Virus genome (UHGV): UHGV-0289908
Reading direction: 5' to 3' (one strand)
Origin: a virus
Length of the DNA stretch: 64,000 bases
The notes beneath the pieces are model-generated. The model searched no databases. It was not told where the DNA came from and saw only the letters and a list, made by a program, of their open reading frames with translations. A program made the position numbers and the translations under genes. Position 1 is the first letter of the stretch. Each line of letters starts with the position of its first letter. Of the stretch, positions 3,912-63,008 are shown piece by piece.

Positions 3912-3921
3912 AAGAATCCCC

Positions 3922-6102: not shown

Positions 6103-6149
6103 TTTTTAAAAACTCCTTAAAATCACTTATTAAAATTTTCTACTCATTC

Positions 6150-7210: not shown

Positions 7211-7257
7211 AAAAATAAATCCTCCTTGGGTATGTGTTGGTTAAGACTTAATTGAAA

Positions 7258-7986: not shown

Positions 7987-7992
7987 TCCTCC

Positions 7993-9309: not shown

Positions 9310-9338
9310 TCACACACCTCCTTTCGAATATGGTCAAA

Positions 9339-9515: not shown

Positions 9516-9520
9516 AGTAA

Positions 9521-17487: not shown

Positions 17488-17564
17488 TGGGGTTTCCTGT
17501 TGGATTCGAACCAACGATAGCTCGGTTATGAGCCGAGAGCTTTGACCGACTAAGCTAAGGAAAC
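17488..17564 (-). tRNA. tRNA-Met (anticodon CAU; could alternatively be lysidine-modified tRNA-Ile2), CCA encoded
   Basis: Manual cloverleaf: 7-bp acceptor GTTTCCT/AGGAAAC, D-arm GCTT/AAGC, anticodon loop CTCATAA, T-arm GTTGG-TTCGAAT-CCAAC, discriminator C + CCA. Confidence 0.8.
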
Positions 17565-18616: not shown

Positions 18617-18690
18617 TGGTGCTCCTACTCAGAATTGAACTGAGATTTCATCATTACCATTGATGTGTTCTGCCATTGAACTATAAGAGC
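18617..18690 (-). tRNA. tRNA-Thr (anticodon GGU), CCA encoded
   Basis: Manual fold: acceptor GCTCTTA/TAGGAGC, anticodon stem CATCA/TGATG with loop ATGGTAA, T-arm CTCAG-TTCAATT-CTGAG, ACCA end. Confidence 0.7.
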
Positions 18691-18736: not shown

Positions 18737-18828
18737 TGGCGGACAGGGTGGAATTCGAATCCACGCACGACTAAAAGCCGTCTAATGCCTTAGCAGGGCA
18801 CCCTCTTAAGCCACTTGAGTACCTATCC
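18737..18828 (-). tRNA. tRNA-Ser (anticodon GCU), class II with long variable arm, CCA encoded
   Basis: Acceptor GGATAGG/CCTGTCC, anticodon loop CTGCTAA, ~20-nt variable arm, T-arm GTGGA-TTCGAAT-TCCAC, GCCA end. Confidence 0.7.
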
Positions 18829-18935: not shown

Positions 18936-20042
18936 CTAGTAGTTCATTCCTTCAACAGAATAATTATACTCGTCTAAGAACGTATTCAAGTCATCAAGTG
19001 AAGATGGCACTGCCACTGCTCCACACTTGACCTGTTCCATTGCTTCGTCAACTTTTGTGATGGTATCTTCTGTTAAGTTTGGATTTTCCACTGGTAATCC
19101 AACACCATCCGCTTTGATATCCATTACAATCGTTTCTCCACCTTTGAAAGTGTTGTTTGCATGGTTTTCCACATGCTCATATGAAGCTCGTCCTAAATTC
19201 TTCATGGCAGATGTCAAGATGACCGAACTACCATTGGAAATCAATCCTTCTGAATATTGGTCGATGTCAACTCCAACAATGTAAACGCTATCTCCAGACT
19301 CTGCTCGGCTCTTTGCTTCATTAATAGCTCCAACTCCGACTCCACCTGCTGCTTGCATGATAATGTCTGCTCCTTTATCATACATTGCTCCTGCAATAGC
19401 CTTTCCTGCGTCTACATCTGTGAATGTACCTTGATATAAATAGTCAATCACTTCAACATCTGTTCCGTAGATTGCATTGGCATAAGCCACACCTGCTACA
19501 AATCCCCATCCTAATTTTTGAACCGCAGGAACTTTCATTCCTCCAATGAATCCAACTTTGCCCGTTTGTGATTGTAAAGCTGACGCAACTCCCGTTAAGA
19601 AGCCTGCTTCATGTTCTGTGAAGAATACTGAGACGACATTGTCTCCAACTTCATAGTCCGACCCCACTAATGGAGTTCCATCAATCAATACAAAGTTGAT
19701 GTCTGGGTAAATGGCTTGGGCTTGCCCTATGGCTTCTTCAAACTTGAATCCTGCCACAACAATGACCTCATTGCCTGCCATTACCAGATTATCAATGGCA
19801 TTCATATAGTCTTGAGTTGACTCTCCGCTTGGTTGGATATATTGAATTTCTACGTTCTCATTATCTGCTTGATATTCCAATATTCCTTCCCAAGTCCCTT
19901 GGTTGAATGATTTGTCATCAATAGTTCCAGAATCTGTAACCATCCCAACTTTTAATGTTGACTCAGATGGGGCAATCTCTTTTTTGCTACAACCGATTAG
20001 TGTGAATGCACACACTGCCAATAATAGTGTAAACTTTTTCAT
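18936..20042 (-). CDS. BMP-family (PnrA/Med-like) substrate-binding lipoprotein
   Basis: Start at MKKFTLLLAVCAFTLIGCSKKE (lipobox LIGC) after GGAGGAAGA RBS; periplasmic-binding-protein-like sequence typical of nucleoside-binding BMP lipoproteins. Confidence 0.7.
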   Translation of the reverse strand: MKKFTLLLAVCAFTLIGCSKKEIAPSESTLKVGMVTDSGTIDDKSFNQGTWEGILEYQADNENVEIQYIQPSGESTQDYMNAIDNLVMAGNEVIVVAGFKFEEAIGQAQAIYPDINFVLIDGTPLVGSDYEVGDNVVSVFFTEHEAGFLTGVASALQSQTGKVGFIGGMKVPAVQKLGWGFVAGVAYANAIYGTDVEVIDYLYQGTFTDVDAGKAIAGAMYDKGADIIMQAAGGVGVGAINEAKSRAESGDSVYIVGVDIDQYSEGLISNGSSVILTSAMKNLGRASYEHVENHANNTFKGGETIVMDIKADGVGLPVENPNLTEDTITKVDEAMEQVKCGAVAVPSSLDDLNTFLDEYNYSVEGMNY

Positions 20043-20061
20043 GGGTGTTCTTCCTCCTCGT

Positions 20062-20283
20062 TTACATAAAGCAGTCGTCAGTTGCAACTTCTTCGTCTAA
20101 ATCTTTCTCAGCTTTTGCTTGGAATGATAATACTCCGTGTTTGTTATCAGCGTTTGCTAATAAATCTTGGATGAAGCAAACTCCTTCATCTTCTGTTTCG
20201 ATTGTCATGTCGTCAACATTTAAAGTCCCAGTGACTTTGATGGTATGAGTTTCGACAATCTTTTCTTGAATTGATTTTGCCAT
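20062..20283 (-). CDS. small acidic protein
   Basis: 73-aa ORF with AAGGAGG RBS. Confidence 0.5.
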   Translation of the reverse strand: MAKSIQEKIVETHTIKVTGTLNVDDMTIETEDEGVCFIQDLLANADNKHGVLSFQAKAEKDLDEEVATDDCFM

Positions 20284-21585: not shown

Positions 21586-24339
21586 CTACTCTTCCTCCTT
21601 GAAATGCTTTGACCGTTTTGTGTGCATAGTAAATGTCATTCCTTTAAATTCAAATTCCCCTGTTGCTGACTGAATTGGATATGAGATTTGCCCTTGGTTT
21701 CTTTTCAGTAAGTTTTTAATAATCTGTTCTCCGCACACATTCCATACGACATATTTTGACTTGTTTGAAGAATAACAAATATCAATCATAATATTGCATA
21801 AAGTTTCCTCATTGGTGCATACTACAAGCAGGTCATTTTTAAATCTCTCTGTTAAGCGATTTTCAATGTCTGCTCGTTCATTTGAGGACATCTTCTGTTT
21901 AACCGATGTCTGATAGAACTTCTTAAGGTCGTCAATGTACTGCTCGTACAATGCAGCAACCTTCTTAGCCATACTACGTTTGTATTCAACATTAGGCGAT
22001 TTCAGAATTTCTTTGTCGAACTCTGTCTTGCGTGTGTCGAGCTTGACTTGCTGAAACACCTCTTCAACGTGCCAACAGATTTTGTTCATCAGACAAGCTG
22101 TCTCGTCTATAGGAAGTTGCTTTTTGAAGAAGTGAAGAGATTTTTCTTCCTCTTCTGTTCTGTCTGTTGACGCAATGATTTCGTCCATTGACTTCTTGAA
22201 CTTGCGTCGGCAACGAATGTTCTCACTCTTCACATAATCCATGTAATCCTTGCGTAGCTTTGGATAGATGTAAGTGAAGAAATATGGTTTTTTATCTGCC
22301 ACTAATTGACGATTAAACTCTTTAAAAGCGACTACCTCTTCCGAGTCTGTGTCCGAAGGCATTAAAGGTTGATAGCTTATCCATGACTTAGGAATCCCAC
22401 CAGAGGTTTCAATCCCTTTTGCTACGTCAATACTTTCTTGACTGTGTAGAATGGAAGACATAATTCGATAATCCAACTCTTCCCATTCTGGAGTCCCAAA
22501 GTCAAATCTCGCTTGAATACTTTGAATACATGTTGCCTTGTTTGTAATAACTCCAACATTCTCTGTCTTGCTTGCGAGCAATAACTTGTCAGAACGAATG
22601 TAGTCTTCTTCTGAACACATTTGCTTTTGAGCACTCTTTTGAAGGCAAATAACTGGCAAGGTGTCTCTTATCCCTTTCATAATGTATTCATTGTTTGTAA
22701 TGAAAACGGTATCACCATCACAGTCCATCCCCGATAGTCTAGGACATGTTGCGTCATAGGCATTTAGAACGTACAGCTCCCCAATGTGCTGATACCATTT
22801 TGCCATCTCTTCTGTGCAAACAATTTCAGCCTTACCAATGTTGTTATGAGAGACCATAGGTGCTCGGAACATCCCAACCTCTGACACTCCTTTGTCCACC
22901 CAGAATTTAGAATAAAATTGTCCAGATTTTAATAACCCTTTCACTTCCATTCCAAACATGTTCTCTGCCAAACATATAGGGTCAATAGTTACCGTTTGGT
23001 AATTTCCTTGTACTTTGATTTTCCCAATCTTGGTTTCGTCAATTCGTTTCTTTATCATGTTGTTGATAGATGTTCTAACATAAGGGTCGTTGATTAACTC
23101 TGGCTCAATCATAAGAGCACTAGCGTAATCATATGTATTGATATCTGTATTTTCAGACATCCCAATTCCTTTTAAGTATGCTAAAGATTTTCTAGGGTCT
23201 AGCCCTTTTACCTCAATTATCTCATCTATCGTCGGTTGAATAAGAGCATATATCTCTTCATCTGTTAAATCTAAAGACTGAATGAACTGATAGTTGGTAT
23301 CTCGAACCTCGTCCAATACCTTTGGAGTTTGCTTTGTGACACTAAATGTGTATTTGTTTTCTACACAACATCTATGATAGTGCTCCCATGAATCATAACT
23401 GTCCCACAACTTGAGCATTGAGGTTGTGATTACTAGGTCAACATCATCAACATTCCACTCTTTATCCCAAACATCTACAATGACCTCTTTGTTCGCTTTC
23501 TCTTTTGCAAACATCTTAAAGTCGAACACTAGGGCTACTCCTTTTAAGAAAGAATTCCTAATAATAAAACCGCTCGGAGTGTAATCTAGGTGCAGGTCTT
23601 TAGCCCAAACCTTCGCAAATTCGGGAGAGATAAAACCAGAGCCGTCGCTCGCATTTAGATTCATTTCATAATCTTCAATAACTCGCTTGTGTGGTCGTCC
23701 ATCTGTTACTTCTCCTAATTCGATAACGCTTGTTTTGAAATTCGTTTCCACATCGTGTACAATACAAACGTTAGGGGTGTCGGTTACTGGGTTACTAGCA
23801 CTCATTGTTAAGCTACGATAGGCACTTAATTTTGCAGGAACAAATTCTTTGTCATTACGACCATTGTCAATGCGTCTTTGTAATTCGTCTAAAATGGTTT
23901 CGTCCGCATAGAACACTTCTCCCTTTTTAATTGAAGCAGGAGTGGATAGGAAACGTTTGTATCGTGTTCCATTTATCACAAATCCTCGGTTAATTAAATC
24001 ATAGTGTTTTGATTTATCAATCTTGACACACACAAGATACTTCAAGAACAATATTTTGTCCAACTCTTGTTTCAGCGAAACGTATCTTTTACTATTGGCT
24101 TTATTATGCCCTTCCTGTGTTAAGTGAAAAATCTCTCTTTTGAGTTGTTGAACACGCTCTTCTTCATATCCCGTCTTGGCAATGTCGTCAATACTTCTAA
24201 TAACATACGAAGAAGCAAGTCCAACAATCCACCCTTCCTCTAATAGTTCGTCCATTTCAAGTTTTAAAGACATGTTAGAGTCAACAATCTCAGTGCTTGG
24301 AATTTTTATAATTTTTCTTATTGAATATAGGTTGCTCAC
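21586..24339 (-). CDS. large protein with DxDGD signature: candidate YonO-like single-subunit (two-barrel) DNA-dependent RNA polymerase
   Basis: 917 aa; motif YDATCPRLSGMDCDGDTVFITNN carries the DxDGD metal-binding signature of double-psi beta-barrel RNAPs (multisubunit beta', cellular RdRP, SPbeta YonO); HU-like gene nearby as in SPbeta yonN-yonO. Confidence 0.5.
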   Translation of the reverse strand: MSNLYSIRKIIKIPSTEIVDSNMSLKLEMDELLEEGWIVGLASSYVIRSIDDIAKTGYEEERVQQLKREIFHLTQEGHNKANSKRYVSLKQELDKILFLKYLVCVKIDKSKHYDLINRGFVINGTRYKRFLSTPASIKKGEVFYADETILDELQRRIDNGRNDKEFVPAKLSAYRSLTMSASNPVTDTPNVCIVHDVETNFKTSVIELGEVTDGRPHKRVIEDYEMNLNASDGSGFISPEFAKVWAKDLHLDYTPSGFIIRNSFLKGVALVFDFKMFAKEKANKEVIVDVWDKEWNVDDVDLVITTSMLKLWDSYDSWEHYHRCCVENKYTFSVTKQTPKVLDEVRDTNYQFIQSLDLTDEEIYALIQPTIDEIIEVKGLDPRKSLAYLKGIGMSENTDINTYDYASALMIEPELINDPYVRTSINNMIKKRIDETKIGKIKVQGNYQTVTIDPICLAENMFGMEVKGLLKSGQFYSKFWVDKGVSEVGMFRAPMVSHNNIGKAEIVCTEEMAKWYQHIGELYVLNAYDATCPRLSGMDCDGDTVFITNNEYIMKGIRDTLPVICLQKSAQKQMCSEEDYIRSDKLLLASKTENVGVITNKATCIQSIQARFDFGTPEWEELDYRIMSSILHSQESIDVAKGIETSGGIPKSWISYQPLMPSDTDSEEVVAFKEFNRQLVADKKPYFFTYIYPKLRKDYMDYVKSENIRCRRKFKKSMDEIIASTDRTEEEEKSLHFFKKQLPIDETACLMNKICWHVEEVFQQVKLDTRKTEFDKEILKSPNVEYKRSMAKKVAALYEQYIDDLKKFYQTSVKQKMSSNERADIENRLTERFKNDLLVVCTNEETLCNIMIDICYSSNKSKYVVWNVCGEQIIKNLLKRNQGQISYPIQSATGEFEFKGMTFTMHTKRSKHFKEEE

Positions 24340-25555: not shown

Positions 25556-26356
25556 CTAAGCTCTTTCAGTGTTCTCAATAATGCTAACCGAGATTGCTCG
25601 AAGGTCTCCCTCAAACACTCGTGCTACCACTTGATAAAACTCCCAAGTCATGTCCATATGCGAACAAATGTATTCCATACGATTGGTGTTTGACTTTACC
25701 TCTCCACGCTCAATGGCTCTTCGTAAACGGATATCAACATTCATGTGGTGAGCTAAGTCAAACTCCTTGTAAGCAAGGGCATAGCGTCCTTGATATCCAC
25801 CACGTGCTCCGAAACGGATGATTTGATTAATGCGTTGACGTAGTTCTGGTTTTGGTGAGTCTTGCGTTAATCCCATAATGATTTGCTTTTGATGTTCAAT
25901 CTCTTTCATTTGGGTTTCAATTTTGACATTCTGTTGCTGAATGATAGCATCTTTCTTATTCAGTGTTTGTTGGGCAATCATAAGAGCCTTAGCCATAATG
26001 GTTGCTTCATCATCTTCTTGAGCTACAGGGATGTAACCACCTGTCGTGCGAATTTGCTTTAGGATTTTCTTAACTTCTTTCTTGAATGCCTTAGCGATTG
26101 GTTTACGTGATTGCATAAGAACTTCATACAATCCATCTTCGGTTAAGAACCAAGCTCTTTGCTTTCCTCCAAGGGTACAAACATTGTTTGTAACCTTTTC
26201 TTCTTCATCAACTTTACGCAACATTGTTGAAACATCACTGTGTTCAATCCATTCTGCCACATCTTTTGCTAGGAACAATGGAGCTTCCTTAGTCCCATAC
26301 ATTTTAAATTCTTTTTCGAGCACTACCTGCTCATGCACTACTGTTAATGCTGTCAT
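25556..26356 (-). CDS. Bro-N domain protein (antirepressor-like) with C-terminal KilA-C-like region
   Basis: N-terminal FKMYGTKEAPLFLAKDVAEWIEHSDVSTMLRKVDEEEK...WFLTEDGLYEVLMQSRKPIAKAF typical of Bro-N/Ant N-terminal domain. Confidence 0.6.
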   Translation of the reverse strand: MTALTVVHEQVVLEKEFKMYGTKEAPLFLAKDVAEWIEHSDVSTMLRKVDEEEKVTNNVCTLGGKQRAWFLTEDGLYEVLMQSRKPIAKAFKKEVKKILKQIRTTGGYIPVAQEDDEATIMAKALMIAQQTLNKKDAIIQQQNVKIETQMKEIEHQKQIIMGLTQDSPKPELRQRINQIIRFGARGGYQGRYALAYKEFDLAHHMNVDIRLRRAIERGEVKSNTNRMEYICSHMDMTWEFYQVVARVFEGDLRAISVSIIENTERA

Positions 26357-52948: not shown

Positions 52949-52996
52949 AAAAGAGCTTACGATTAACGTAGGCTCTTTTGGTTTGGGTTTATTTTA
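52949..52996. terminator. bidirectional rho-independent terminator between convergent operons
   Basis: AAGAGCTTACGattaaCGTAGGCTCTT stem followed by TTTTGGTTTGGGTTTATTTT. Confidence 0.55.
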
Positions 52997-55322
52997 ACTT
53001 AAAGAACTTGTCTTGCAAGTGTACAACAAATTCAAATTTTTCATTATCATAGGTGGTGGTCACAAGAGCATGTCGAGGTTTGAGTTCCTTGATTTCATCC
53101 CATGAGAAGCTCACGAGGTCGTCTTCAATACTCTTAACTGCTTCTCGCTTAACCCCACTTAAGATAAATAGATTCAGACCCGAGCTGTTAATACTAGACA
53201 AGGCATGTTGGAACTGATTTAAGTTATGACATGCAAATAAAGTTGATAGTCGGTGTCGTCTAAATTGAGTGATGTATTTAGCAAGGAAGTCGCTAGTATT
53301 TGGAATCATTTTCACCTCATCTAGCAACAAGTGAGTGAGCTTTAATTGACTGCCTTTTCGGGTCTGACATGTGAGCCACAACTTGGTACAGAAGAATGTG
53401 GTAAGAATATCCCGAACACAATCATCTGTAAACTCTGTTTGTGGAATTTGGATAAACACAATCTTGTTCTCATCAATGTATCTATTAAAGTCAATAGAGT
53501 TATCAACAGGGGAACTAAAGAATTCAATCAAGCGTAGGTCTAAAGACTGAATCCCTGCAAAGCGATTCATGATTCCTTTAATATCCGACATGCGAGTACT
53601 TGACTCCCCTTTGTCATCTTTTGTGAGATACAATAGGTTTTTAATATCTACATGGTCTTCACTATAGATATTGTTTGCGATTGCCTTGGAAACATACATA
53701 CTTCTTATGTCGCAATCTTCTAAACAATAATAAACATCCATGATGGTCGCTTGAGGGGTGGTAGCGAATACCACTCGGCAAGCAGAAGATAAATATTTTA
53801 ACATTTGACTGGAAAGCGGTTCTGTAGCTCCAAAGGTGACTCCATTTAATAGTTCACATAATTGAGCAGAAATGAAGTTAGCCCCCTTTAATCTATCTCT
53901 AGGGTTCTTGCTTTCAAGCAATGGGCGAACCTCATTATATCCCAATCCTAAGATGTTGTCACTTTCAGAGTAGTTATGAAGATTGATTACCTCAACACGA
54001 CTTCTATCAAGATACGGTAATACCTCATTGGTTAGCTCGCAATCTTGAACATAATCAATGACTATAAGAGGTTGACCGAGTTTGTAAACTTCGTAAATGT
54101 AATTTTGCATAAAGGTGGTTTTCCCTCCACCTTGGGTACAGACCAGAGCCTTTGATTGAGCAAGGTCATCATTCTTGGAACTAAAGCTCACGGGAACTTC
54201 TTGTCCTCCTCGATTATATAATCCCATTTTTAAATACTCATCAAATGCCTGTTGAGGTAAATCCGTTTGAGTATTTGCAATGGCTTTTAACTGCTTGTAC
54301 TGTCGTTGCATGGTTTTATTTGGAAGCGTTACCATTTGTTGAATCTCTTTTGTATTCAATACCTGTGGGAACAGGAAGCTATAGCGACCCATTTCACGTT
54401 TAATTTTGATAACGGGAGTCATATCTGTTGGTTTAAGAGCATTGTCCCCGTCTAGGGTTCTGAATGCTACAATTAAACTATTCAGATTCTCACGTCTTCG
54501 GATATCATTTTGACTGTAGCTGAACAACCGAATACGAGTGTTGAATCCTTCATACATGGTTTTGTCCGTCTTGATGGAGTTCGTTCCACGCATAGCATAA
54601 GAATGTTTCTTTTCCTTTTTGACTGGCTCAACATCAAGAATCGCTTCGAAGATATCCTCGATAATTTCAACCACATAATCTATTATATTCTCATAGAACC
54701 ATATATATGCTTTCATCAAAAAGTTTCGACTAGATGTAACGTCTTTTCCTTGACGATAGGCTTCGTATTTGCTATCTGCTGATTCATGCCACCAATTATT
54801 AATTGGCTCAAGTAGGAGTTGAAACAGTAACTTATCGTCCTCCATTAAGCCATGTGTTACATTCAACACAGAGCCTAATGGAGAATGACTACGTCCATCT
54901 GTCAATAATGACATAAAGAAATGATTTTTTAATTCTAGGTCGCAGGTTAGAGAATTATCATTTTCAAAAACATGAATATAGTCCTCAGTTTCTGCGACTC
55001 CAATATTCCCCCAACTATTTTTGACCTTGTTCTGAATAAATGAGTCATATCGAGTTGGGATTGCGAGAGTGAATTTAATCTGCTGTTTACTTAAAAGGAT
55101 TTCATAGGTCGTGACATCTTTTCTGTGACACGACCATTTCATTCCATCTCGCTTGATTCTATCTTTTAAGTCCCGATTAACTTGGTGAAGAGCCTTTACC
55201 AACTCGTCGCTACAGTGAACATTATCTATAGTAGCGTCGGGAATAAGTTGATACAAAGTGTGAGTATCCTTGATTCGTTCAAAGCCTATATTAATAGGTA
55301 GGGCTTTTGGTTGAAGATTCAT
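52989..55322 (-). CDS. 777-aa P-loop NTPase (VirB4/TraC-like size and Walker-A placement), last gene of membrane-protein operon
   Basis: Start MNLQPK after AAGGAGGG RBS (ATGA overlap with upstream gene); Walker A CTQGGGKTT near residue 430; Walker-B-like PLIVIDY. Confidence 0.6.
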   Translation of the reverse strand: MNLQPKALPINIGFERIKDTHTLYQLIPDATIDNVHCSDELVKALHQVNRDLKDRIKRDGMKWSCHRKDVTTYEILLSKQQIKFTLAIPTRYDSFIQNKVKNSWGNIGVAETEDYIHVFENDNSLTCDLELKNHFFMSLLTDGRSHSPLGSVLNVTHGLMEDDKLLFQLLLEPINNWWHESADSKYEAYRQGKDVTSSRNFLMKAYIWFYENIIDYVVEIIEDIFEAILDVEPVKKEKKHSYAMRGTNSIKTDKTMYEGFNTRIRLFSYSQNDIRRRENLNSLIVAFRTLDGDNALKPTDMTPVIKIKREMGRYSFLFPQVLNTKEIQQMVTLPNKTMQRQYKQLKAIANTQTDLPQQAFDEYLKMGLYNRGGQEVPVSFSSKNDDLAQSKALVCTQGGGKTTFMQNYIYEVYKLGQPLIVIDYVQDCELTNEVLPYLDRSRVEVINLHNYSESDNILGLGYNEVRPLLESKNPRDRLKGANFISAQLCELLNGVTFGATEPLSSQMLKYLSSACRVVFATTPQATIMDVYYCLEDCDIRSMYVSKAIANNIYSEDHVDIKNLLYLTKDDKGESSTRMSDIKGIMNRFAGIQSLDLRLIEFFSSPVDNSIDFNRYIDENKIVFIQIPQTEFTDDCVRDILTTFFCTKLWLTCQTRKGSQLKLTHLLLDEVKMIPNTSDFLAKYITQFRRHRLSTLFACHNLNQFQHALSSINSSGLNLFILSGVKREAVKSIEDDLVSFSWDEIKELKPRHALVTTTYDNEKFEFVVHLQDKFFKLK

Positions 55323-55663
55323 ATAATCCCTCCTTGAACGATACAGGCACATATGTATACTATAGCACTAAAATATAATCCTGTAAAGGTTTTTTCGTTG
55401 TCATCTCCAAACATTAGGCGGTAACAATAATATGCAAAGAATGCCACAGAGCCGATGGTGGCAATCTCCACAGCTCCTGCGAGCAACATGTCAAGTAATC
55501 GGTTTAAGAAGTTCATTAATGCGTCACTGATAGCGTCTCCAACTGCTTGGATAACTTCGGATATTTGTTGAGCTACCCAACCTTTGCTAGCCCCTTCGTC
55601 TGCAATATTGGTAAGAACGACAGGGACACTTTTTATTAATTGTCCGTTCACTTTAACTATCAT
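55319..55663 (-). CDS. membrane protein (two C-terminal TM helices)
   Basis: 114 aa; ATGA coupling at both ends. Confidence 0.55.
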   Translation of the reverse strand: MIVKVNGQLIKSVPVVLTNIADEGASKGWVAQQISEVIQAVGDAISDALMNFLNRLLDMLLAGAVEIATIGSVAFFAYYCYRLMFGDDNEKTFTGLYFSAIVYICACIVQGGII

Positions 55664-56163
55664 AATACCCCTCCAATCATATGGATGACATTTTGAGCCA
55701 CCTCTACTGCCCCAGTGACAGCACCTTCCATTAATCCCTCTTTCACAGATTCTACATAAGTCTCAATAAAGTACATAATTCCATCTAAAGCAATTAGTAA
55801 AGTATATCCCATGGCAACATCCTTAAATTGTCGAATAGCTCCTTTGGGGTCTCCTCCGCACATGCGATAGATAGCTTTTGCTCCATTTACATAAAAGATG
55901 ATACGTCCTGCATCAAATAGGATAGGAAGAAGGACGGGGGATAATTTGTCCCATAGTCCAACCCCTCCTGTCATATTCATAACTGTAAATCCAGTTGCTA
56001 TGGCAACAGGAACAGCAGAACACTTCATTTTCAATGCGACAGGTTTCGACAAATCTTTTTCAAAGAGAACTGGAACATTTACAATTTCAACCTCAGCTTG
56101 TTTCCCCATTTCAATTCTATGTGTTGAGTAGTTTTCAGTTAAGTTTAAAACATTATTAATCAT
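55660..56163 (-). CDS. polytopic membrane protein
   Basis: ~167 aa from MINNVLNL after AAGGGGGA RBS; several hydrophobic segments. Confidence 0.55.
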   Translation of the reverse strand: MINNVLNLTENYSTHRIEMGKQAEVEIVNVPVLFEKDLSKPVALKMKCSAVPVAIATGFTVMNMTGGVGLWDKLSPVLLPILFDAGRIIFYVNGAKAIYRMCGGDPKGAIRQFKDVAMGYTLLIALDGIMYFIETYVESVKEGLMEGAVTGAVEVAQNVIHMIGGVL

Positions 56164-56176
56164 TTTCATTTCCCCC

Positions 56177-56278
56177 TTATTTACGTTTTTTACTTTTCTT
56201 ATAAGCCACAACTGCCCCAGTTAATAAAGCCAATGAAACTGTAGACCCGATTCTAAATAATAAAGCAACTTCAAACAT
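56177..56278 (-). CDS. 33-aa single-TM peptide
   Basis: MFEVALLFRIGSTVSLALLTGAVVAYKKSKKRK after AAAGGAGGGAGA RBS. Confidence 0.45.
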   Translation of the reverse strand: MFEVALLFRIGSTVSLALLTGAVVAYKKSKKRK

Positions 56279-56280
56279 GA

Positions 56281-56397
56281 TTATCTCCCTCCTTTACGAA
56301 TTTTATATTTAACTTGAGAAGCAATACTCCCTGTTAAACCAAGACCAACAATAACAATCATGTCTCTGACGATATTCATAGCCAAATATTCTAACAT
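56281..56397 (-). CDS. 38-aa single-TM peptide
   Basis: MLEYLAMNIVRDMIVIVGLGLTGSIASQVKYKIRKGGR after CAGGGGGA RBS; stop overlaps RBS of next peptide. Confidence 0.45.
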   Translation of the reverse strand: MLEYLAMNIVRDMIVIVGLGLTGSIASQVKYKIRKGGR

Positions 56398-56564
56398 TTT
56401 TTAATTCCCCCTGTATAATATTTTCGAAACCGTCCATAATACTACTGTAATCAAACGAAAGGAGTGAACAACTATGGCATATCTTGGGCTAGGTATTTTA
56501 TGGGCATTAGAAGCCGTTGAATGGGTAAACTTTTTTGCTCGATTCTAAGATTTTTTGCAAATTT

Positions 56565-56593
56565 TTTGAAAATGGCATATTTCGGGCATGCCC
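56565..56593. promoter_or_regulatory. GC-rich palindromic operator candidate between divergent operons
   Basis: GCATATT-TCGGGCATGCCCGA-GCATATGC: 14-bp perfect palindrome flanked by GCATAT(GC) elements. Confidence 0.5.
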
Positions 56594-56837
56594 GAGCATA
56601 TGCTTTAGCAAAGCGTAACGCATGTAAGCGTCAGCTAAAAGCGTGTTACCACTTTCCTACCCTACTGGGATTCTTCCTTTGATTTTATAGTATTTGACGG
56701 AGTGTTCATATAATAGCCTGTGTGAACAGGCTAGGTCATGAACGCTTTTGTTTTGTTGCTTAGTACACTATATGTTGCCAACGATATCAATATTCCCAAA
56801 TGAGATAGAAAATATTTTTTCTTTTTACTGGAATTTG

Positions 56838-56868
56838 TGTTGACTTTAAATGCAACCCATGTTAATAT
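56838..56868 (+). promoter_or_regulatory. promoter of recombinase gene (same family as early promoters)
   Basis: tgTGTTGACTttaaatgcaacccaTGtTAATAT. Confidence 0.55.
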
Positions 56869-56907
56869 AGATGTATCGAAGGACAATAATAATAAGGAGG
56901 AGTCAAT

Positions 56908-57810
56908 ATGGACTTAATTCAACGTTTTTTGCGAGCTAAGGCTCATTGTTACACAGAAGATACAACAAAAAGCTATCGAGCAGACCTTGAACAATTTTTT
57001 GAGTTTTTGGCTGAACGTCATGAAACAACTGACCAAACAGTGCTTATTAAAAAGGCAGATTACTCAGAATGTTTGGATTATTTATTTTATTTACAAGACC
57101 GCAAGTTATCTGTTTTTACCATCAATAGAAAACTAGGAAGTGTTACGTCATTGTTTAAGTTTTGTGTGGATTTGGGGCTTATTGCAGAAAATCAGATGAA
57201 GAAGGTAGACCGAAACCCCACTAAACACTTAATTCAAGATAACGATTTTTTAACAAAGGACGAATATGATAAATTGTTCTTGGCAATTCAGACACGACAA
57301 GCTAGACAACCAAATTTTGAATTTACAAAGACCCGTGACCTAGCTTTGTTCTCAATGATTATCTCATTAGGATTGCGTATCACAGAAGCTCGAACACTAA
57401 CATATGACCAAATCGACCTCCAAACTGGACGCATTAGATTGGTGCGAAAAGGATTAAAGGCTCAGACACTTAAGCTAACCAGTCATCTTATAGAATTGTT
57501 GAATGAATACCTTGAGCAACGCAAAAAGGTTCACATTACAGAAGGATTAGAGAATCGAATCTTCCTTACTGCAAATGGGAATGAGTTAACAACAAAAGAT
57601 TGCAACCGTGCCTTAGAACGCTACTGCAAACGAGCAGGAATTAAACAAATCAGCAATCATGACCTACGACATACCTGTGCCACAAATCTAGCTTCACGTG
57701 GAGCTTCAATTAATGATATAAAAGAATTATTAGGTCACAAGCAATTAGCAACGACCAGTCGCTACGTTCATGGGGATTCCTCGAATATTGAAGACCTTAT
57801 TGGATTATAA
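56908..57810 (+). CDS. tyrosine recombinase (integrase/Xer-like) with intact catalytic residues
   Basis: GLRITEAR..., KG, HDLRHTCAT, TSRYVHG (R-K-HxxR-Y pattern); 300 aa; AAGGAGG RBS. Confidence 0.8.
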   Translation: MDLIQRFLRAKAHCYTEDTTKSYRADLEQFFEFLAERHETTDQTVLIKKADYSECLDYLFYLQDRKLSVFTINRKLGSVTSLFKFCVDLGLIAENQMKKVDRNPTKHLIQDNDFLTKDEYDKLFLAIQTRQARQPNFEFTKTRDLALFSMIISLGLRITEARTLTYDQIDLQTGRIRLVRKGLKAQTLKLTSHLIELLNEYLEQRKKVHITEGLENRIFLTANGNELTTKDCNRALERYCKRAGIKQISNHDLRHTCATNLASRGASINDIKELLGHKQLATTSRYVHGDSSNIEDLIGL

Positions 57811-57928
57811 AAAGTAGTTATCGACTACTTTTTATTTTTTTCTACAAAAACATACAAAAACTATTGTAACCCTTATAACAATATGTTATAATTTACATGG
57901 GTGAATATTATAAAATGAGCTGTAAAAC

Positions 57929-57961
57929 TGTTGATTTCTTAGGGAAGAATGTGGTATAATC
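57929..57961 (+). promoter_or_regulatory. promoter for 412-aa gene
   Basis: aaaactgTTGATTtcttagggaagaatgTGgTATAAT. Confidence 0.5.
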
Positions 57962-57995
57962 ATCATATAATATAAAACAGGAAGGAGTCTTAAGA

Positions 57996-59234
57996 TTGGA
58001 AAACAGTATATTTGCTACTCTTAATAGCGTGATTGATACTCATAACAGCGAACAAACAGTAGACTACCTCACCAAACATTTTCGTAGTCATGGACTAAAT
58101 AAAGCAACACCAAGCCTTGTATTTGCCAAAATGGTGAGCTTAGACAAATTGTCTCAAACAGAATTAATCTGTCTATCAGAAGGGTTGTATAGTATTACAG
58201 GAATTGAGAAGATTAACCCTAAAAATCTGTTTGAAGGTGAGGAACTAGAGGTATATCATGAATTACAGGAGCAAACGGATTATTACCCAACAACAATAGC
58301 TGCTCAGAGAGCCCTAGATTATAGGGACAAAAAGGTATTAGATTTTTTAAATGAAACATATGGTAATTATAAGACAAAACACACATACTTTTTTATTTAC
58401 GATTCAAAGATAAGACAAGAAGAAAGAGACAATTCAAAACAATTAGGAGATTTTGACGCAGTTGAAATCATCACCCTAATGCAATCCATGAAGGGGAGCT
58501 TAAGCACTCGCAAGAATGCTCTCTCTTTCGTGAAGAAATATATGAAATGGTATTGGAGAGAGAATCCCGAAGAGAATCCTATGTTGGATATCGAGAAGGG
58601 GACACCGCTAGTTCTAGTCAATGACAGCCATTTATCAAGTAAATACATCCCGATGATGGAACTAGAGGAAGAAGCTAAAAAACTGGTCGTGGCAGAAGAC
58701 AACCCTGTATTTCCTATTGATGGAATGATAGCAACTCTTATTCGTCAAGGGTTGACGGCAGAGGAGGTTGCTTCCCTTAGATTTTCAGATTTTAATTATC
58801 AAACAAATACGGTCAAAATAAAAACAAAAACAAGTGGACTCAAGTTGGTCAAGTTGGATTCCCATGTACTGCATTGGGTTAGAGAAACAGAAGAGGACAA
58901 TCGACCCGTGGGTCATCCACCTATTTATCTAAACATAGTAGACGACCATATTATTCGAGTACCGTCCACAACATATGATGAAAAGAAAGCAGTAGAGAAT
59001 ATTAGAAGAAGATTAAGTAAATTTAAAAATGCAGGATACAGACCACTAAGTGAGAACGTGCTCATTATCAGCAAAAAGATTGACCTTCTTGACAATATTG
59101 TGAAAACAAAAGGTGTTGTTACTAAGGATGATTTTATAAGAGTACAAGAGATGTTCGGAAACAAAGGTTCAAGTTGGTTCAAGATTCGCACTGAATATGA
59201 AGCTGTTCGTGGAGCTAAAAACATTAGGTTGTAG
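57996..59234 (+). CDS. recombinase-like protein lacking catalytic residues; candidate MrpR/YopR-type DNA-binding repressor (TTG start)
   Basis: 412 aa; segment GLTAEEVASLRFSDFNYQTNTVKIKTKTSG resembles start of tyrosine-recombinase catalytic domain but no HxxR or Y motifs; AGGAAGGAG RBS. Confidence 0.45.
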   Translation: MENSIFATLNSVIDTHNSEQTVDYLTKHFRSHGLNKATPSLVFAKMVSLDKLSQTELICLSEGLYSITGIEKINPKNLFEGEELEVYHELQEQTDYYPTTIAAQRALDYRDKKVLDFLNETYGNYKTKHTYFFIYDSKIRQEERDNSKQLGDFDAVEIITLMQSMKGSLSTRKNALSFVKKYMKWYWRENPEENPMLDIEKGTPLVLVNDSHLSSKYIPMMELEEEAKKLVVAEDNPVFPIDGMIATLIRQGLTAEEVASLRFSDFNYQTNTVKIKTKTSGLKLVKLDSHVLHWVRETEEDNRPVGHPPIYLNIVDDHIIRVPSTTYDEKKAVENIRRRLSKFKNAGYRPLSENVLIISKKIDLLDNIVKTKGVVTKDDFIRVQEMFGNKGSSWFKIRTEYEAVRGAKNIRL

Positions 59235-59260
59235 AAAGAGTATAGATTGTAAAAGAAATG

Positions 59261-59290
59261 CCACCTCTATCATGAGGTGGTTTTTATTTT
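59261..59290 (+). terminator. rho-independent terminator
   Basis: CCACCTCtatcatgaGAGGTGG followed by TTTTTATTTT. Confidence 0.65.
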
Positions 59291-59564
59291 ATTTAAAATT
59301 CGACAAATTTCAACATTTTTCTCTTGCATTAAGCAAAGCACATATGGTAAGATAATAAACGTGGAAGCGAGAAGTATAAATTTCAATCCCCCTAGTCTCG
59401 CTTCCACCTCTCCTAACCCCATATATCTGTTTCAACAACTGCTCGAACAAGAGCAAGCAGATATGTACTCTCTTTTATTTTCCCATGGCAACTACTCATC
59501 CTCGTTCTTGCGGTTGTCATGGGATTCTTTTCTCATATTACAATCTCCCCTATTTCAACTCATT

Positions 59565-59595
59565 TTAAAAAAGGGCAACCCGTTACCAGTTGCCC
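59565..59595 (-). terminator. rho-independent terminator after ParR-like gene
   Basis: GGGCAACtggtaacggGTTGCCC then TTTTTT on minus strand. Confidence 0.55.
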
Positions 59596-59846
59596 CAGTT
59601 ATTATTAGAATGGGGAATCTTGTTCGATGTAACAGGAACTGATTCTCCATTTACTATAATGTTGTTTAAGCTATCAACATTAACATTAATATTCTCTTCC
59701 CCCAAAAAGGTTTCGACAGCGAGCAGAATGAATCCCCGCAGATTCATTCTCTTGCTCTTAGAAACCTTTTTTATTGCGTCATAGAGGGCTTTGTCATCTT
59801 CATAGAAAACAAGCGGATGAGTCTTGTAAATCTCTTGTTTAGCCAT
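59583..59846 (-). CDS. parR: ParR-like small DNA-binding adaptor (RHH-like)
   Basis: 87 aa immediately downstream of and coupled to ParM-like gene (ATGA overlap). Confidence 0.45.
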   Translation of the reverse strand: MAKQEIYKTHPLVFYEDDKALYDAIKKVSKSKRMNLRGFILLAVETFLGEENINVNVDSLNNIIVNGESVPVTSNKIPHSNNNWGNW

Positions 59847-60805
59847 TATTTTGCCCCCTTATGTAAACCAAATTTAAAATATCCACGAGCATTACCTGTT
59901 TGAGCATGAGGATGAACCTTAATGTTTTCTGCAACAGGTAAATGCCCATCTAAGGCTTTTGAGCCCCCTCCTGTATAAATAACCCTATCAGCCATTTTAA
60001 AACTGATTCCAGAATCATTAATGAAGGTCATAATCTGTTTATGAATTTCCTCTTTAGCCACGGCTAAGTGCTTAGAGAAGTCAAAAGTCTGTTCGTATTT
60101 ATTAATTTTTGATTGGTTGTTTACCCCAATATCCTCAAGAGTGAATCGGAAATCACGACCTGCATAATCTTGATTGATATATTGGAGATACAGATTAGAT
60201 ATATCCATACAACCAATATCTGCTCCGATTAGGGTTTCAGCGGTCATTCCATCACTAAGTAGAATATCTGTTGTTCCTCGCCCGATATCAATTACCAAAT
60301 ACTTGTATTCGTTGCGTCCATTGATAACTTGCAAATTGCCGTCAAACATAAAGTCAATGAGTGTTCCAAGTGGTTGAGGAATCACATGCACTTCTACAAC
60401 CTTAATATCATGTTTTGTTTCTCCTTTGTAAATGGTATGGTTACCAAGTAATCTAGACTTCGTCTGAGCAATCAGAGCGGGGTCGTTGTAATCTTCACAT
60501 GGCAGTCCCGTTGTTAAGATTACATTCTTCTCTTTTTGTACCCGAGATATTGCAACTAGATTTTCAATAAGGAACTCTTTCGTGGTGTATCTCTTCATAT
60601 TGCGACCACCCGAAGTACTTCCTTTATTGGATAGCACATATCGTTCTCCCATGTAAGTATATTCTGTCTCTTGTGTCTTACCTCCAAGTAATGCCATTTC
60701 ACGACCATGGCGACGCAAAAGTCGATTCTCATATGTATCCACCTTTGCATTTGTAACTGTTTTTGTGAAGCCATTAGCGGCTTCTAGCCCTATGATTTGA
60801 GTCAT
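59846..60805 (-). CDS. parM: ParM/StbA-like actin-family partition ATPase
   Basis: 319 aa; phosphate-2 motif YLVIDIGRGTTD and N-terminal IGLEAANGFTK typical of actin-like ParM proteins. Confidence 0.7.
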   Translation of the reverse strand: MTQIIGLEAANGFTKTVTNAKVDTYENRLLRRHGREMALLGGKTQETEYTYMGERYVLSNKGSTSGGRNMKRYTTKEFLIENLVAISRVQKEKNVILTTGLPCEDYNDPALIAQTKSRLLGNHTIYKGETKHDIKVVEVHVIPQPLGTLIDFMFDGNLQVINGRNEYKYLVIDIGRGTTDILLSDGMTAETLIGADIGCMDISNLYLQYINQDYAGRDFRFTLEDIGVNNQSKINKYEQTFDFSKHLAVAKEEIHKQIMTFINDSGISFKMADRVIYTGGGSKALDGHLPVAENIKVHPHAQTGNARGYFKFGLHKGAK

Positions 60806-61163
60806 AATCTCACCTCTATTTTGTTTTGCTTAGTACATCATATTACTTCTGTTGCTTCTTTAGAACTAAAAGGAAATAAAAATATATATTTTTTATGTAT
60901 AAAACTTAGGACTTTGAATCATAATACAAACAGATGGGTTATAAACCACCTATATTAATAGGATATACATATCATATATCGACGGCAAAGTACTTATATA
61001 TTTATACATAATTTTAGGTGGTTCACCATGCCCCGACATCAAGTGCTTCTTGGTGTTGAAGAGGGTCGAACGATTCACGCTCAAATACTATAAAACCCCA
61101 TTTACAATCCCCACAAGGGATGTTATGATGTACTCAAGAACTGATACGAAAGGATGATTAATA

Positions 61164-61550
61164 ATGAATGAACAAGCAAAAGAGATTAAGATTTTACGAG
61201 GACAAATCCACATGGTTGATTTTGGGAACGTGGATGAATATAGTGGAAGTTTACAAAGAGGTAAGCGACCTGCAATCGTCATCACAAATGATACGGGATG
61301 TCGTTTTAGTCCCATTATTTCTGTAATCCCCCTAACAACCCAAAAGACGAAACGCAATCTTCCAACGCACTGTCATATTAAAAGAGATGAAACAAACAGA
61401 TTGTTAAAAGATTCAATAGCACTAACGGAACAGGTAGTAACAGTGAATCGTTTCCAAATTGGCGAACGAACAGGAAAACTATCTCCTAAAGATATGCAAC
61501 GAGTGGCGAACTGTTTAGGAGTGTCTGTGGGTTTATCCCTCGCAGTGTAG
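61164..61550 (+). CDS. MazF/PemK-family endoribonuclease toxin
   Basis: ILRGQIHMVDFGNVDEYSGSLQRGKRPAIVITNDTGCRFSPIISVIPLTTQ matches the PemK signature (G-ihhh-hDF-Gse-GkrRPalVis). Confidence 0.7.
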   Translation: MNEQAKEIKILRGQIHMVDFGNVDEYSGSLQRGKRPAIVITNDTGCRFSPIISVIPLTTQKTKRNLPTHCHIKRDETNRLLKDSIALTEQVVTVNRFQIGERTGKLSPKDMQRVANCLGVSVGLSLAV

Positions 61551-61653
61551 GTAAAACATTATAAAACATTTTATAATTTTCATACATACAAGTCATCAAA
61601 ATACCTACACCGTTTCCCACTTTAAAACTTTTTCGCTAAAATATTATAAAACA

Positions 61654-61684
61654 CGTTGACACCCCTGTCGAAAGATGATATTAT
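61654..61684 (+). promoter_or_regulatory. promoter preceded by the 29-bp element shared with 40552
   Basis: ttcgctaaaatattataaaacacgTTGACAcccctgtcgaaagaTGaTATTAT. Confidence 0.55.
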
Positions 61685-61727
61685 TAGGGTGTCAATTTTT
61701 TAGTTGGCGGAAAGAGGTGATAAAGAA

Positions 61728-61925
61728 ATGTGTGAACACGTGAAAGAGCGACTGCTAGAACTACAGCTACTGACAAAACGCAAGATGACGGTTCTCAAGT
61801 CTCTTGAATGGGCAATCAGTAATGGGGATAAGGGAATGTCAGATATGTGCGAACGAGAGCTCAAGATTATCCTTAAGAGGATTAGCACGATTAAAAAGGA
61901 ATTGGCACGATTAAAAAGAAATTAA
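61728..61925 (+). CDS. small coiled-coil protein
   Basis: 65 aa from MCEHV; AGAGGTGA RBS. Confidence 0.45.
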   Translation: MCEHVKERLLELQLLTKRKMTVLKSLEWAISNGDKGMSDMCERELKIILKRISTIKKELARLKRN

Positions 61926-61947
61926 CAAAATAAAGGGGGAAATCAAA

Positions 61948-62340
61948 ATGGAGAAACGTAAACATATTTCTGAAATGAAGTATGAGGAAAAGAATATGCT
62001 TCGCAAGATTGTAAAGCAAAACAAGTTTGTATTCAGTGACCACTGTATCAAACGAACCATGCAACGCAGGGTGATGGTAACAGACATCGTGAAAACAATC
62101 CGCAAGGGGAACATCATTGAATTCCATGTGGTTGGCGACAGCATAAGAGTGTTGTTGCGAGGGAAGCCGAATGGAAAAGACAAGTGCCCGTGTGTGGTAC
62201 TAAATGTGGGGACAAAAGAAGTGGTGACAGTATATCACAATTACAAATACAATCACCATCAATATTCAAAACGCACTCTGTATTCAAAAGATTTGGATAT
62301 ATGTTCATTAGTGCAACCATACTTAAAGAAATGCAATTAA
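61948..62340 (+). CDS. basic protein
   Basis: 130 aa; AAGGGGGA RBS. Confidence 0.55.
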   Translation: MEKRKHISEMKYEEKNMLRKIVKQNKFVFSDHCIKRTMQRRVMVTDIVKTIRKGNIIEFHVVGDSIRVLLRGKPNGKDKCPCVVLNVGTKEVVTVYHNYKYNHHQYSKRTLYSKDLDICSLVQPYLKKCN

Positions 62341-62377
62341 TACATACGAAAACAGGAAACCAAGGAGAAAAGTAATC

Positions 62378-62788
62378 ATGTGTAAATCAATCGAATTATT
62401 AAGTCAAATGAAATCATTAGGAGCAGAATTAGTTGGACAATTTGAGTATTTAAAAAAGGAACTCGGGAAGTGCGAGCGTATTCGCCAAGACATTCTTCAC
62501 AAAATTGAAGATATCGAAGATTTGAATGCGTCAGCTTCATACAATTATACGAAAGCACTCAACATCATTTCAAAGCACCGACGCAAGATTAAAAATGAAT
62601 TAGTAGCAATCGAACCCTACATGAAGGCTCTAGGCAATTATCACAAAACGGCAGGAGCGACATTAGGGAACATTGAAATTAGATATCAGACACTGTCAAG
62701 CAAAACAGGAGCAGACTATGAACCAAAAGTTTTAAATCTTAACGATAACATCTTGACGCAAGTTAAGGAAATTTGTGGAATCGAATAG
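62378..62788 (+). CDS. hypothetical protein
   Basis: 136 aa; AAGGAGAA RBS. Confidence 0.55.
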   Translation: MCKSIELLSQMKSLGAELVGQFEYLKKELGKCERIRQDILHKIEDIEDLNASASYNYTKALNIISKHRRKIKNELVAIEPYMKALGNYHKTAGATLGNIEIRYQTLSSKTGADYEPKVLNLNDNILTQVKEICGIE

Positions 62789-62806
62789 ATAAAATATTAT
62801 AAAATG

Positions 62807-62837
62807 TGTTGACAAAATCCTACAAAAAAGGTATAAT
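62807..62837 (+). promoter_or_regulatory. sigma-A promoter
   Basis: aaaaTGTGTTGACAaaatcctacaaaaaaggTATAAT. Confidence 0.6.
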
Positions 62838-62853
62838 ATAAGAGGTGAAAGTA

Positions 62854-62949
62854 ATGGAACAAAACAGCCGACTAACACTAGATATGTTGATTATGGAACT
62901 TAAAAATCAACAGGCAGAAAAGTCAGAAAAGCAATCAGCAAACAGATGA
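62854..62949 (+). CDS. 31-aa peptide
   Basis: AGAGGTGAAAGTA-ATG ~10 nt after predicted TSS of promoter 62807. Confidence 0.35.
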   Translation: MEQNSRLTLDMLIMELKNQQAEKSEKQSANR

Positions 62950-63008
62950 TTGTCTCAATGACCATCTGTCAAGAGCTTTGCAACTACTATAATAACGGAG
63001 GGATTTGC

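Follow-up and report, generated by a model that had tools for sequence, protein, structure and literature searches.

How is a large SPbeta-like phage of the human gut passed from one host generation to the next, as an insertion in the chromosome or as a plasmid? The question is raised by positions 56908 to 61550 of a 64,000 nucleotide (nt) stretch, hereafter the window, of the virus genome UHGV-0289908. From the letters alone, an original prediction saw in this interval a plasmid-type maintenance module, with a tyrosine recombinase, a ParM-ParR partition pair and a MazF/PemK toxin, placed next to a replication origin and holding everything needed for stable episomal inheritance. The best explanation found here is that the interval is an island in which a circular SPbeta-like human-gut phage of ~152 kb keeps its genes for lysogeny and maintenance. 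Plasmid-prophage inheritance, and not chromosomal insertion, is the likeliest lifestyle, and our preference for it is a modest one. The interval has five genes, where four had been listed: the recombinase, ParM, ParR-like and MazF genes lie where they had been placed, but a gene for a protein of 412 amino acids (aa) at 57996-59234 had been overlooked. The genes are as follows.

56908 to 57810, plus strand: tyrosine recombinase of the Xer/Cre type, 300 aa, occupying the place that YopP/SroD has in SPbeta (Pfam Phage_integrase, 1.4e-34)
57996 to 59234, plus strand: 412-aa integrase-fold protein akin to SroF/MrpR (YopR), with catalytic residues lost; probable master repressor (by Pfam, fold and alignment)
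59583 to 59846, minus strand: candidate for a ParR-like adaptor, 87 aa, in translational coupling with parM (one-base overlap with the parM stop codon, TAATG)
59846 to 60805, minus strand: ParM-type actin-fold partition ATPase, 319 aa (ALP_N 9.7e-14, MreB-like_C 3.3e-8)
61164 to 61550, plus strand: endoribonuclease toxin of the MazF/PemK family, 128 aa; no antitoxin gene adjoins it (PemK_toxin 4.5e-22)

The 412-aa protein is probably a master repressor of the SroF/MrpR type. The Pfam model MrpR_N_CB matches all 14 of the 14 homologues that were collected, the best at 5.1e-10; the window protein itself scores 24.1 bits against this model, whose cut-off is 27. An AlphaFold2 (AF2) model of the protein (predicted local distance difference test score, pLDDT, 82.8) was used in a Foldseek search of the PDB, and ranks 1 to 7 are occupied by phi3T SroF, SPbeta MrpR (8A0A) and YopR, with E values from 1.3e-6 to 1.3e-5. 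Every true recombinase ranks behind them. The matched phi3T SroF structure is that of a complex with DNA and an antirepressor. In the alignment with YopR the loss of catalytic residues is evident: the first Arg is replaced by Thr (GLTAEE), and the His-x-x-Arg box is absent. MrpR displays a comparable loss (residue list from PMC10516654), and at the MrpR positions N254/V257/R258 the window protein has N, I and I. The link to MrpR and YopR is weak when only sequences are compared, with a BLASTP value of 1e-3 against YopR and an hhalign value of 0.013, and neither phmmer nor a profile search of the PDB with the 412-aa protein found MrpR. Thus the repressor assignment rests on the Pfam model, the fold and synteny. 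In the only characterized cases, proteins of the SroF/MrpR type are lysogeny repressors (PMC10516654; bioRxiv 10.1101/2025.11.27.690993). MrpR/SroF is the master repressor of SPbeta-type phages, and the SPBRE element, repeated in ~10 early promoters, is its binding site.

The synteny is with the sroA-F operon (yopM-yopR) of SPbeta and phi3T, whose SroF/MrpR is the best fold match of the repressor described here. The SPbeta gene order is yopP (tyrosine-recombinase-like), yopQ and yopR; in the window the recombinase gene is followed by the repressor gene, likewise on the early-gene strand. There are differences. Sequence identity to the SPbeta/phi3T proteins is only 15-21%, the repressor has an extra N-terminal domain of ~110 aa relative to SroF/MrpR, and no separate counterpart of YopQ/SroE was seen in the window. 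In a relative of the element, L008, the order is recombinase, a 96-aa gene and repressor. SPbeta itself integrates by the serine recombinase SprA and is without ParMR.

The protein encoded upstream of the repressor is an active-type enzyme. Its catalytic set is complete when aligned with XerD (1A0P), with all six residues R-K-H-R-H-Y in place in the stretches GLRITE, VRKGLK, HDLRH, LLGH and RYVH, which bears out the earlier description of a catalytically intact Xer/Int-like tyrosine recombinase. It consists of an N-terminal SAM-like core-binding domain (residues 15-87) and a catalytic domain (114-290), without an arm-binding domain. Matches to the XerC, XerD and XerA models range from 1e-48 to 5e-43; however, all three are far below the respective equivalog cut-offs, with 166 and 157 bits against 335 and 330 for XerC and XerD, and the protein is thus not an ortholog of chromosomal XerC or XerD. 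Its N-terminal domain matches that of SPbeta YopP (5e-7), the only YopP domain that matched. A role in multimer resolution or integration had been suggested. The recombinase and the neighboring repressor together match the yopP-yopR (sroD-sroF) cassette, and the enzyme is therefore not simply a plasmid multimer resolvase. Palindromes are found near the gene at 56701-56746 and 57807-57835, and neither could be tied to the enzyme as a core site. Three short contigs, from independent metagenome assemblies, terminate ahead of the recombinase gene at window positions 56470, 56593 and 56633, not more than 165 bp apart. They match the window to their very ends, thus no foreign junction is visible in them; the ends could be due to variation between strains, or to a recombination site at which the assembly forks.

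The third component of the island is the partition pair. ParM was predicted from its DIGRGTTD motif, and the identification is sound: besides the two actin-fold Pfam domains, it matches PHROG 691 'partition protein' (7.5e-39) and, as the nearest solved ParM, that of plasmid pSK41 (3JS6, 1.4e-11). In an alignment of the family, the phosphate-2 motif DIGxxTTD, of which DIGRGTTD is the window version, and the GGG adenosine motif are invariant. The score against the NCBIfam ParM equivalog model is 92 bits with a cut-off of 417, thus the protein is not an ortholog of that model. The small gene that follows parM, predicted as a coupled ParR-like gene, does have the position and the one-base overlap expected of one; its product matches no known ParR family. 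No Pfam, PDB-sequence or PDB-profile, or Foldseek match was obtained for its product, and attempts at classification, including Pfam scans of profile hits, gave only faint hints of Arc/TacA. Relatives are rare, with only 10 found by profile search among 1.84 billion representative proteins. A small partner gene follows that of ParM in four phage contexts, and the N-terminal pattern VFY...K..Y...R..I...E is common to all of its products, whose C-terminal tails have an aromatic residue and Gly (WGNW, MGDW, FGN, FDD). The AF2 model predicts a strand-helix-helix at residues 5-50 (core pLDDT 84-91), which would be compatible with a ribbon-helix-helix (RHH) fold. By position and co-occurrence the protein is an adaptor candidate.

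The staphylococcal plasmid pSK41 has the same order of genes in its type II ParMRC system (Staphylococcus aureus), with parM followed by the small adaptor gene. pSK41 ParR is an RHH protein, and the pSK41 parC is an array of direct repeats upstream of parM. The window differs in that no repeat array was found and the adaptor matches no ParR family.

Transcription signals set the partition pair apart from its surroundings. The pair runs against the flanking early genes, and the position of its probable promoter is kept in the relatives L019 (with TATAAT) and L008 (with TATATT). The signals of the recombinase, repressor and partition genes are listed here.

56840 to 56868, plus strand: candidate recombinase promoter, TTGACT-N17-TAATAT (pattern match only, from a consensus scan)
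57807 to 57835, plus strand: terminator-like hairpin 3′ of the recombinase gene, a perfect 12-bp inverted repeat with a T-run (repeat finding and sequence)
59260 to 59281, plus strand: intrinsic terminator 3′ of the repressor gene
59285 to 59571, no strand assigned: non-coding spacer of ~290 bp, predicted to be strongly structured and flanked by the convergent repressor-gene and parR terminators (folding z-score -5.9 on the plus strand, -4.0 on the minus strand)
59572 to 59596, minus strand: intrinsic terminator after parR
60837 to 60865, minus strand: probable parM promoter, TTCTAA-N17-TATGAT, without the repeated element described below (alignment, inference)

The spacer folds into several long hairpins and is poorly conserved in L019; no Rfam family was detected in 56000-63000, which includes it.

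The genome that carries the island is circular in its assembled form. The earlier label of an SPbeta/siphophage-like genome is correct: a 917-aa open reading frame (ORF) at 21586-24339 is a homologue of the SPbeta single-chain RNA polymerase YonO (6e-35), and structural genes belong to the Pfam families named for SPbeta YonD, YonB, YomU and YomN. The closest YonO relatives are those of Clostridium phage c-st (37.6% identity) and of Enterocloster phages. A full set of virion genes (a terminase with an intein, portal, YonB capsid, tail tube and tape measure) is on one contig with the ParM/ParR-like pair. On the metagenome contig SRR9333227_226 (137,054 bp), parM starts at 111,536 and the gene of window positions 466-909 starts at 19,206, in identical orientation; the window joins the same two genes by the opposite path, spanning 59,896 bp. 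Two opposite paths between two genes therefore give a circle or concatemer of ~152.2 kb. This size is consistent with contigs of 151,923, 148,216 and 154,609 bp, the last of which (ERR414459 k127_72480, from a human gut metagenome) shows 100% identity to the window across the 12.9 kb compared. The large contigs break at positions that differ from one another. One break falls within the ribonucleotide reductase gene, near the place where some variants have a GIY-YIG endonuclease insertion. Look-ups with the recombinase, ParM and a tail gene, in which up to 23 contigs were read per gene, revealed no host junction at any place shown, and the phage neighbors were the same at each of these places. 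None of the index blocks, 32 with ParM and 57 with the tail gene, has a carrying contig longer than 200 kb. A SprA-type serine integrase had no tblastn match in the window and its flanks, ~81 of the ~152 kb.

As to the ribonucleotide reductase itself, the gene for the large subunit lies at 5880-6811 of L001/L005, which corresponds to about 63995-64926 in window numbering, past the right end; it is split by GIY-YIG in some variants and uninterrupted in others. The 151.9-kb contig breaks at window position 63847, ~150 bp ahead of the start of the GIY-YIG insert.

The linkage of the island genes is conserved in relatives of the element, and it persists down to a repressor identity of 38%.

L019, ParM identity 81%: recombinase, repressor, ParR and ParM, and MazF all present
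L008, L035 and L036, ParM identity 58% (L008), repressor identity 53-55%: recombinase, repressor, ParR and ParM, and MazF all present
L034, repressor identity 38%: recombinase and repressor present; ParR and ParM present, with a ParM of a different family; MazF absent

In L034 (15196-16462) the ParM belongs to the StbA_N family, has 21% identity to the window ParM, and is accompanied by a 106-aa partner. This non-orthologous replacement of ParM at the same place argues that the partition pair has been selected for in the lineage. Comparison of the five genes with those of L019 gave nonsynonymous divergence (dN) of 0.04-0.23, with 0.13 for ParM, in every case far lower than the synonymous divergence (dS), which is saturated. 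Since synonymous sites are saturated, dN/dS is not quantifiable. Conservation within the module is highest for MazF, with 92% aa identity to L019.

Outside of metagenomes the element is elusive. A near-identity DNA search with the module found no match in phage or plasmid collections, the ParM scan of IMG/VR viral contigs found nothing, and scans of 185,579 GTDB species-representative genomes, with ParM and then with the repressor profile, also found nothing. The ParM scan of JGI metagenomes gave one 2-kb contig. The element is present in many bulk gut metagenomes, as seen by the 57 index blocks for the one tail gene. Host and habitat therefore rest on contig names only.

From these parts a scheme of inheritance can be proposed. 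Incoming DNA would be circularized by the active recombinase, which might also, or instead, resolve dimers, as Cre does for P1. The 412-aa repressor would silence the lytic promoters, perhaps via the repeated 19-bp element described below. At cell division ParM filaments, with the ParR-like adaptor, would push sister prophage copies apart, and a lysogen would thus carry the phage as a low-copy plasmid.

The individual parts do not constitute a new kind of system, and the phage-plasmid lifestyle is already known from other phages. The original prediction regarded the combination as unusual for an SPbeta/siphophage-like genome. This does not hold for the lineage, as phage c-st, the closest by YonO, is a plasmid prophage, and a Xer-like recombinase with ParM and an RHH adaptor has been described for Bacillus plasmid prophages. 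The closest described analogue is Bacillus phage vB_BtS_B83, a temperate siphophage in which a XerC/XerD-family recombinase is beside ParM and a small RHH-type adaptor unlike known ParR. B83 and the BMBtp14 group are circular plasmid prophages of the B. cereus group, and its authors read the recombinase, ParM and adaptor as functions of multimer resolution and plasmid-prophage partition (PMC6669507). Plasmids of ~60 kb from Bacillus, apparently of the B83 type, are among the best ParM matches, with ~29-30% identity. B83-type genomes are ~50-60 kb and have a RepA-like initiator, an arbitrium system and XRE-type regulators, whereas the present element, of human-gut origin, is ~152 kb and SPbeta-like (YonO, YonB capsid), and its repressor has an integrase fold. 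As for arbitrium (AimR/AimP), no AimR family was seen among ~20 scanned window ORFs or in the Pfam labels of flanking genes, though no targeted search was made.

A similar logic is known from phage P1 of Enterobacteria, a circular prophage with ParAB-parS, Cre-lox and Phd-Doc. P1 likewise has, on a circular prophage, a partition system, a simple tyrosine recombinase for cyclization and dimer resolution, and a toxin. The differences are that partition in P1 is of type I (ParA) and the toxin-antitoxin pair is complete, whereas here partition is of type II and the toxin is alone. Phage c-st, the closest relative by YonO, is a plasmid prophage whose segregation depends on the tubulin-like TubZ, not ParM; the same sequence has a second entry, as a C. 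botulinum plasmid, and in c-st no homologue was detected for either ParM or the 412-aa repressor.

Several observations weigh against inheritance as a plasmid. A circular assembly is expected equally well from the virion or replicating DNA of a headful-packaging phage, thus the topology is no proof of plasmid carriage in lysogens. A check for a circular extrachromosomal state had been proposed, and the metagenome contigs answer it in part, with an implied circle of ~152 kb that is equally compatible with virion or replicating DNA. The inference of episomal inheritance is strengthened by the circle, the lack of a host junction and the ParM-ParR linkage in relatives, but carriage as a plasmid is not proven by them. 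The ~81 kb of sequence examined leaves a remainder of the genome in which an integrase and attP could sit, and the tyrosine recombinase itself could be an integrase. No plasmid-type Rep protein was recognized beside the origin, no centromere-like repeat array was found in the region between parM and mazF, and the partner of ParM matches no ParR family. The genome scans gave neither a host nor an isolate. A related phage with a similar Xer-like recombinase, PMBT24, is described as virulent.

Were the element an ordinary integrating temperate phage, the recombinase would be its integrase, with attP nearby, and the ParM pair would serve to move or organize replicating DNA in the lytic cycle. AlpC/AlpA of the Corynebacterium prophage CGP3, likened here by description, is such a pair, with an actin-like protein of phage origin and a small adaptor that binds DNA; CGP3 sits in the chromosome, and once it is induced AlpC serves the replication of viral DNA, not plasmid inheritance. 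PHROGs do place the recombinase under 'integrase', the three short contigs end at 56470-56633 as an attP fork could cause them to, and the phage contigs L013 and L021 have ParM and a small partner among their replication genes and in the orientation of those genes. However, the parMR pair of the window runs against the flanking early genes and is without their promoter element, and the recombinase, with only core-binding and catalytic domains in its 300 aa, lacks the arm-binding domain. No contig has host DNA beside the module, the short contigs match the window to their ends, and none of the 185,579 species-representative genomes has a relative. Integration is therefore judged unlikely.

A virulent or pseudolysogenic phage would also have no host junction, and circular contigs fit it equally well. 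All five genes would then be lytic, with concatemers resolved or circularized by the recombinase, DNA positioned by ParM, the host shut off by MazF and temporal control exerted by the integrase-fold protein. PMBT24, whose YonO homologue has 34.5% identity and whose Xer-like recombinase has 27.6%, is reported as virulent and circularly permuted, and the promoter element of mazF is common to other phage genes. However, the PMBT24 paper applied lifestyle-prediction software to the genome, and a protein of the SroF/MrpR type is a lysogeny repressor wherever it has been characterized. The occurrence of the element in many bulk gut metagenomes (the 57 index blocks) and the retention of ParMR through deep divergence, including one replacement, also argue against a purely lytic existence, which we consider quite improbable. 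Inheritance as a plasmid prophage remains the reading that is modestly preferred.

The role of the toxin gene is a separate matter. The MazF/PemK-family assignment made earlier is well supported, with matches to S. aureus MazF (3e-18) and B. subtilis EndoA (5e-14) in addition to the PemK_toxin domain; the aligned Arg and Thr are presumably the catalytic residues. The features that bear on its expression are these.

61078 to 61129, plus strand: mazF promoter, TTTACA-N17-TATGAT (61101-61129), preceded by a copy of the repeated 19-bp element (61078-61096)
56682 to 56700, minus strand: copy of the 19-bp element facing the leftward DUF8128 ATPase operon (match to CGCTMAAATAYTATAAAAC)

The element has the form CGCT[ACT]AAATA[CT]TATAAAAC. 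Counted as matches to CGCTMAAATAYTATAAAAC with not more than 3 mismatches, it is found in 8 copies in the window, at 25532, 27791, 40554, 56682, 61078, 61549, 61634 and 62787, against 0.13 expected by chance. Its orientation is always that of local transcription, and most copies are 2-3 nt upstream of a near-consensus -35 box. The core AATAYTATAAAAC of the copy before mazF is conserved in L019 and L008, and L008 has nine copies within 10 kb (225-9700). In SPbeta the SPBRE element is found in many promoters, and the 19-bp element is likewise repeated before promoters here. It may be the operator of the SroF-like repressor and the counterpart of SPBRE, an analogy drawn from this arrangement; alternatively it may be an UP element. 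In either case mazF belongs to a phage-wide promoter class, and the parM promoter, which is without the element, does not.

The original prediction took MazF for the toxin of a plasmid addiction module, which by post-segregational killing would stabilize the episome. The MazF fold is intact, including the Arg and Thr that we take to be catalytic, the gene adjoins the partition genes and is the best conserved of the module, and P1 unites partition, Cre and Phd-Doc in a like manner. However, no antitoxin ORF is found upstream of mazF or overlapping it, where the 358-bp upstream region has promoters only. Nor was a MazE-like ORF found in the window, though this is a weak test. The gene downstream, for a coiled-coil protein of 65-73 aa, is preceded by a separate copy of the promoter element, and its product does not resemble MazE; the L034 island is without MazF. 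With no adjacent antitoxin and a promoter element common to other phage genes, plasmid addiction is not supported by the anatomy of the locus, and we regard it as quite improbable. Addiction is no likelier than host shut-off, exclusion or abortive infection, and a repressor-gated toxin is another alternative. PADLOC defence-system models had no match in the module. A further and highly speculative scheme, to which we give little credence, is that a gut branch of SPbeta/c-st phages dropped integration and tied a SroF-type repressor to a Cre-like recombinase, ParM and an unclassified adaptor. The repressor would gate the orphan MazF via the repeated element, and derepression, rather than loss of an antitoxin, would free the toxin.

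Downstream of mazF, at window positions 61704-62340 (plus strand), are the coiled-coil protein, with a repeated MCE motif and 57% identity in L008, and a DUF4258 protein, both expressed from a further copy of the 19-bp element and its promoter. A 20-bp tandem repeat is present at 61881-61924.

The sites at which partition and replication might act were sought in two regions, and the features found are as follows.

60944 to 61023, no strand assigned: inverted pair AACCACCTA / TAGGTGGTT, proposed earlier as parC (9-nt exact inverted repeat)
61036 to 61056, no strand assigned: single 21-bp palindrome ACATCAAG-TGCTT-CTTGGTGT, candidate operator (alignment)
29269 to 29530, no strand assigned: origin-like region with tandem iterons (29269-29488) and three perfect DnaA boxes (29487-29530), at a switch of coding strand and GC skew

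The AT-rich sequence 60806-61160 had been put forward as a candidate centromere, parC. The region between parM and mazF (358 bp, 60806-61163) has two divergent promoters, and the motifs named in the proposal, GGTTATAAACCACC at 60937 and GGTGGTTCACC at 61017, are present. However, a 9-nt exact inverted repeat with at least four G/C was reached in 28 of 1000 shuffles (2.8%), and repeat finders and a k-mer scan revealed no iteron or tandem repeat array in the region. Thus the search for repeats of the type bound by ParR, which had been recommended, was negative here. A parC, of a non-canonical kind, may lie within the region. The arms of the 21-bp palindrome are conserved in L019, with a variable spacer, and in L008 another palindrome is in the same place. 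An 11-nt inverted repeat, AGTACATCATA, flanking the intergenic region was considered as a binding site and rejected; it consists of the similar -10 regions of the two divergent promoters.

The origin had been described as next to the module. This is incorrect, since the only cluster of DnaA boxes and iterons is ~27 kb away, on the same replicon. It is flanked by genes for an ArdA-type antirestriction protein (32235-32795, plus strand, 1e-6) and a Bro-N domain protein (25556-26356, minus strand, 3.9e-16). Among the early genes just right of the origin region is a match to the Pistol self-cleaving ribozyme (Rfam RF02679) at 31875-31941 (plus strand), with 60.8 bits against a gathering threshold of 34.5.

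If the plasmid lifestyle is true, phage-plasmids extend to large (~150 kb) SPbeta-like phages of the human gut. Such elements are likely missed by prophage finders that seek integration junctions, and are likely absent from genome bins; dozens of public gut metagenomes contain the present one, whereas the searches of species-representative genomes and of phage and plasmid collections did not find it. Under the plasmid reading, SroF/MrpR-type repressors would also be shown to occur well outside Bacillus, beside a sister recombinase that is still active, and the pair offers a natural comparison for the evolution of repressors from recombinases.

Other features of the window lie outside the island. 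To its left, at 52989-56211 (minus strand), a 787-aa P-loop ATPase (DUF8128, phrog_5156, 1.9e-110) and small membrane proteins form an operon. The ATPase has a weak VirD4-like C-terminal match, and homologues are found in SPO1 (gp27.4) and many other Bacillus phages. A role in conjugation was considered for this operon and ruled out, as the homologues are phage proteins such as SPO1 gp27.4.

The large terminase (1016 aa, 11089-14139, minus strand) is interrupted by an intein that includes a LAGLIDADG endonuclease; the insertion point directly follows a Gly-Lys resembling Walker A, and the boundaries read GYGK|CVSGDT (start) and VSHN|T (end). At 16816-16866 (minus strand) there is a match to the 6A RNA family, barely above threshold at 42.5 against 41.2 bits. 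Three tRNA genes, for Met, Thr and Ser (17488-17564, 18617-18690 and 18737-18828, minus strand), are located between the structural genes and the RNA polymerase gene. Adjoining them is a gene for a Bmp/PnrA-like ABC-transporter substrate-binding lipoprotein (18936-20087, minus strand, Pfam 1.3e-68), which may be auxiliary or host-derived and could hint at the host.

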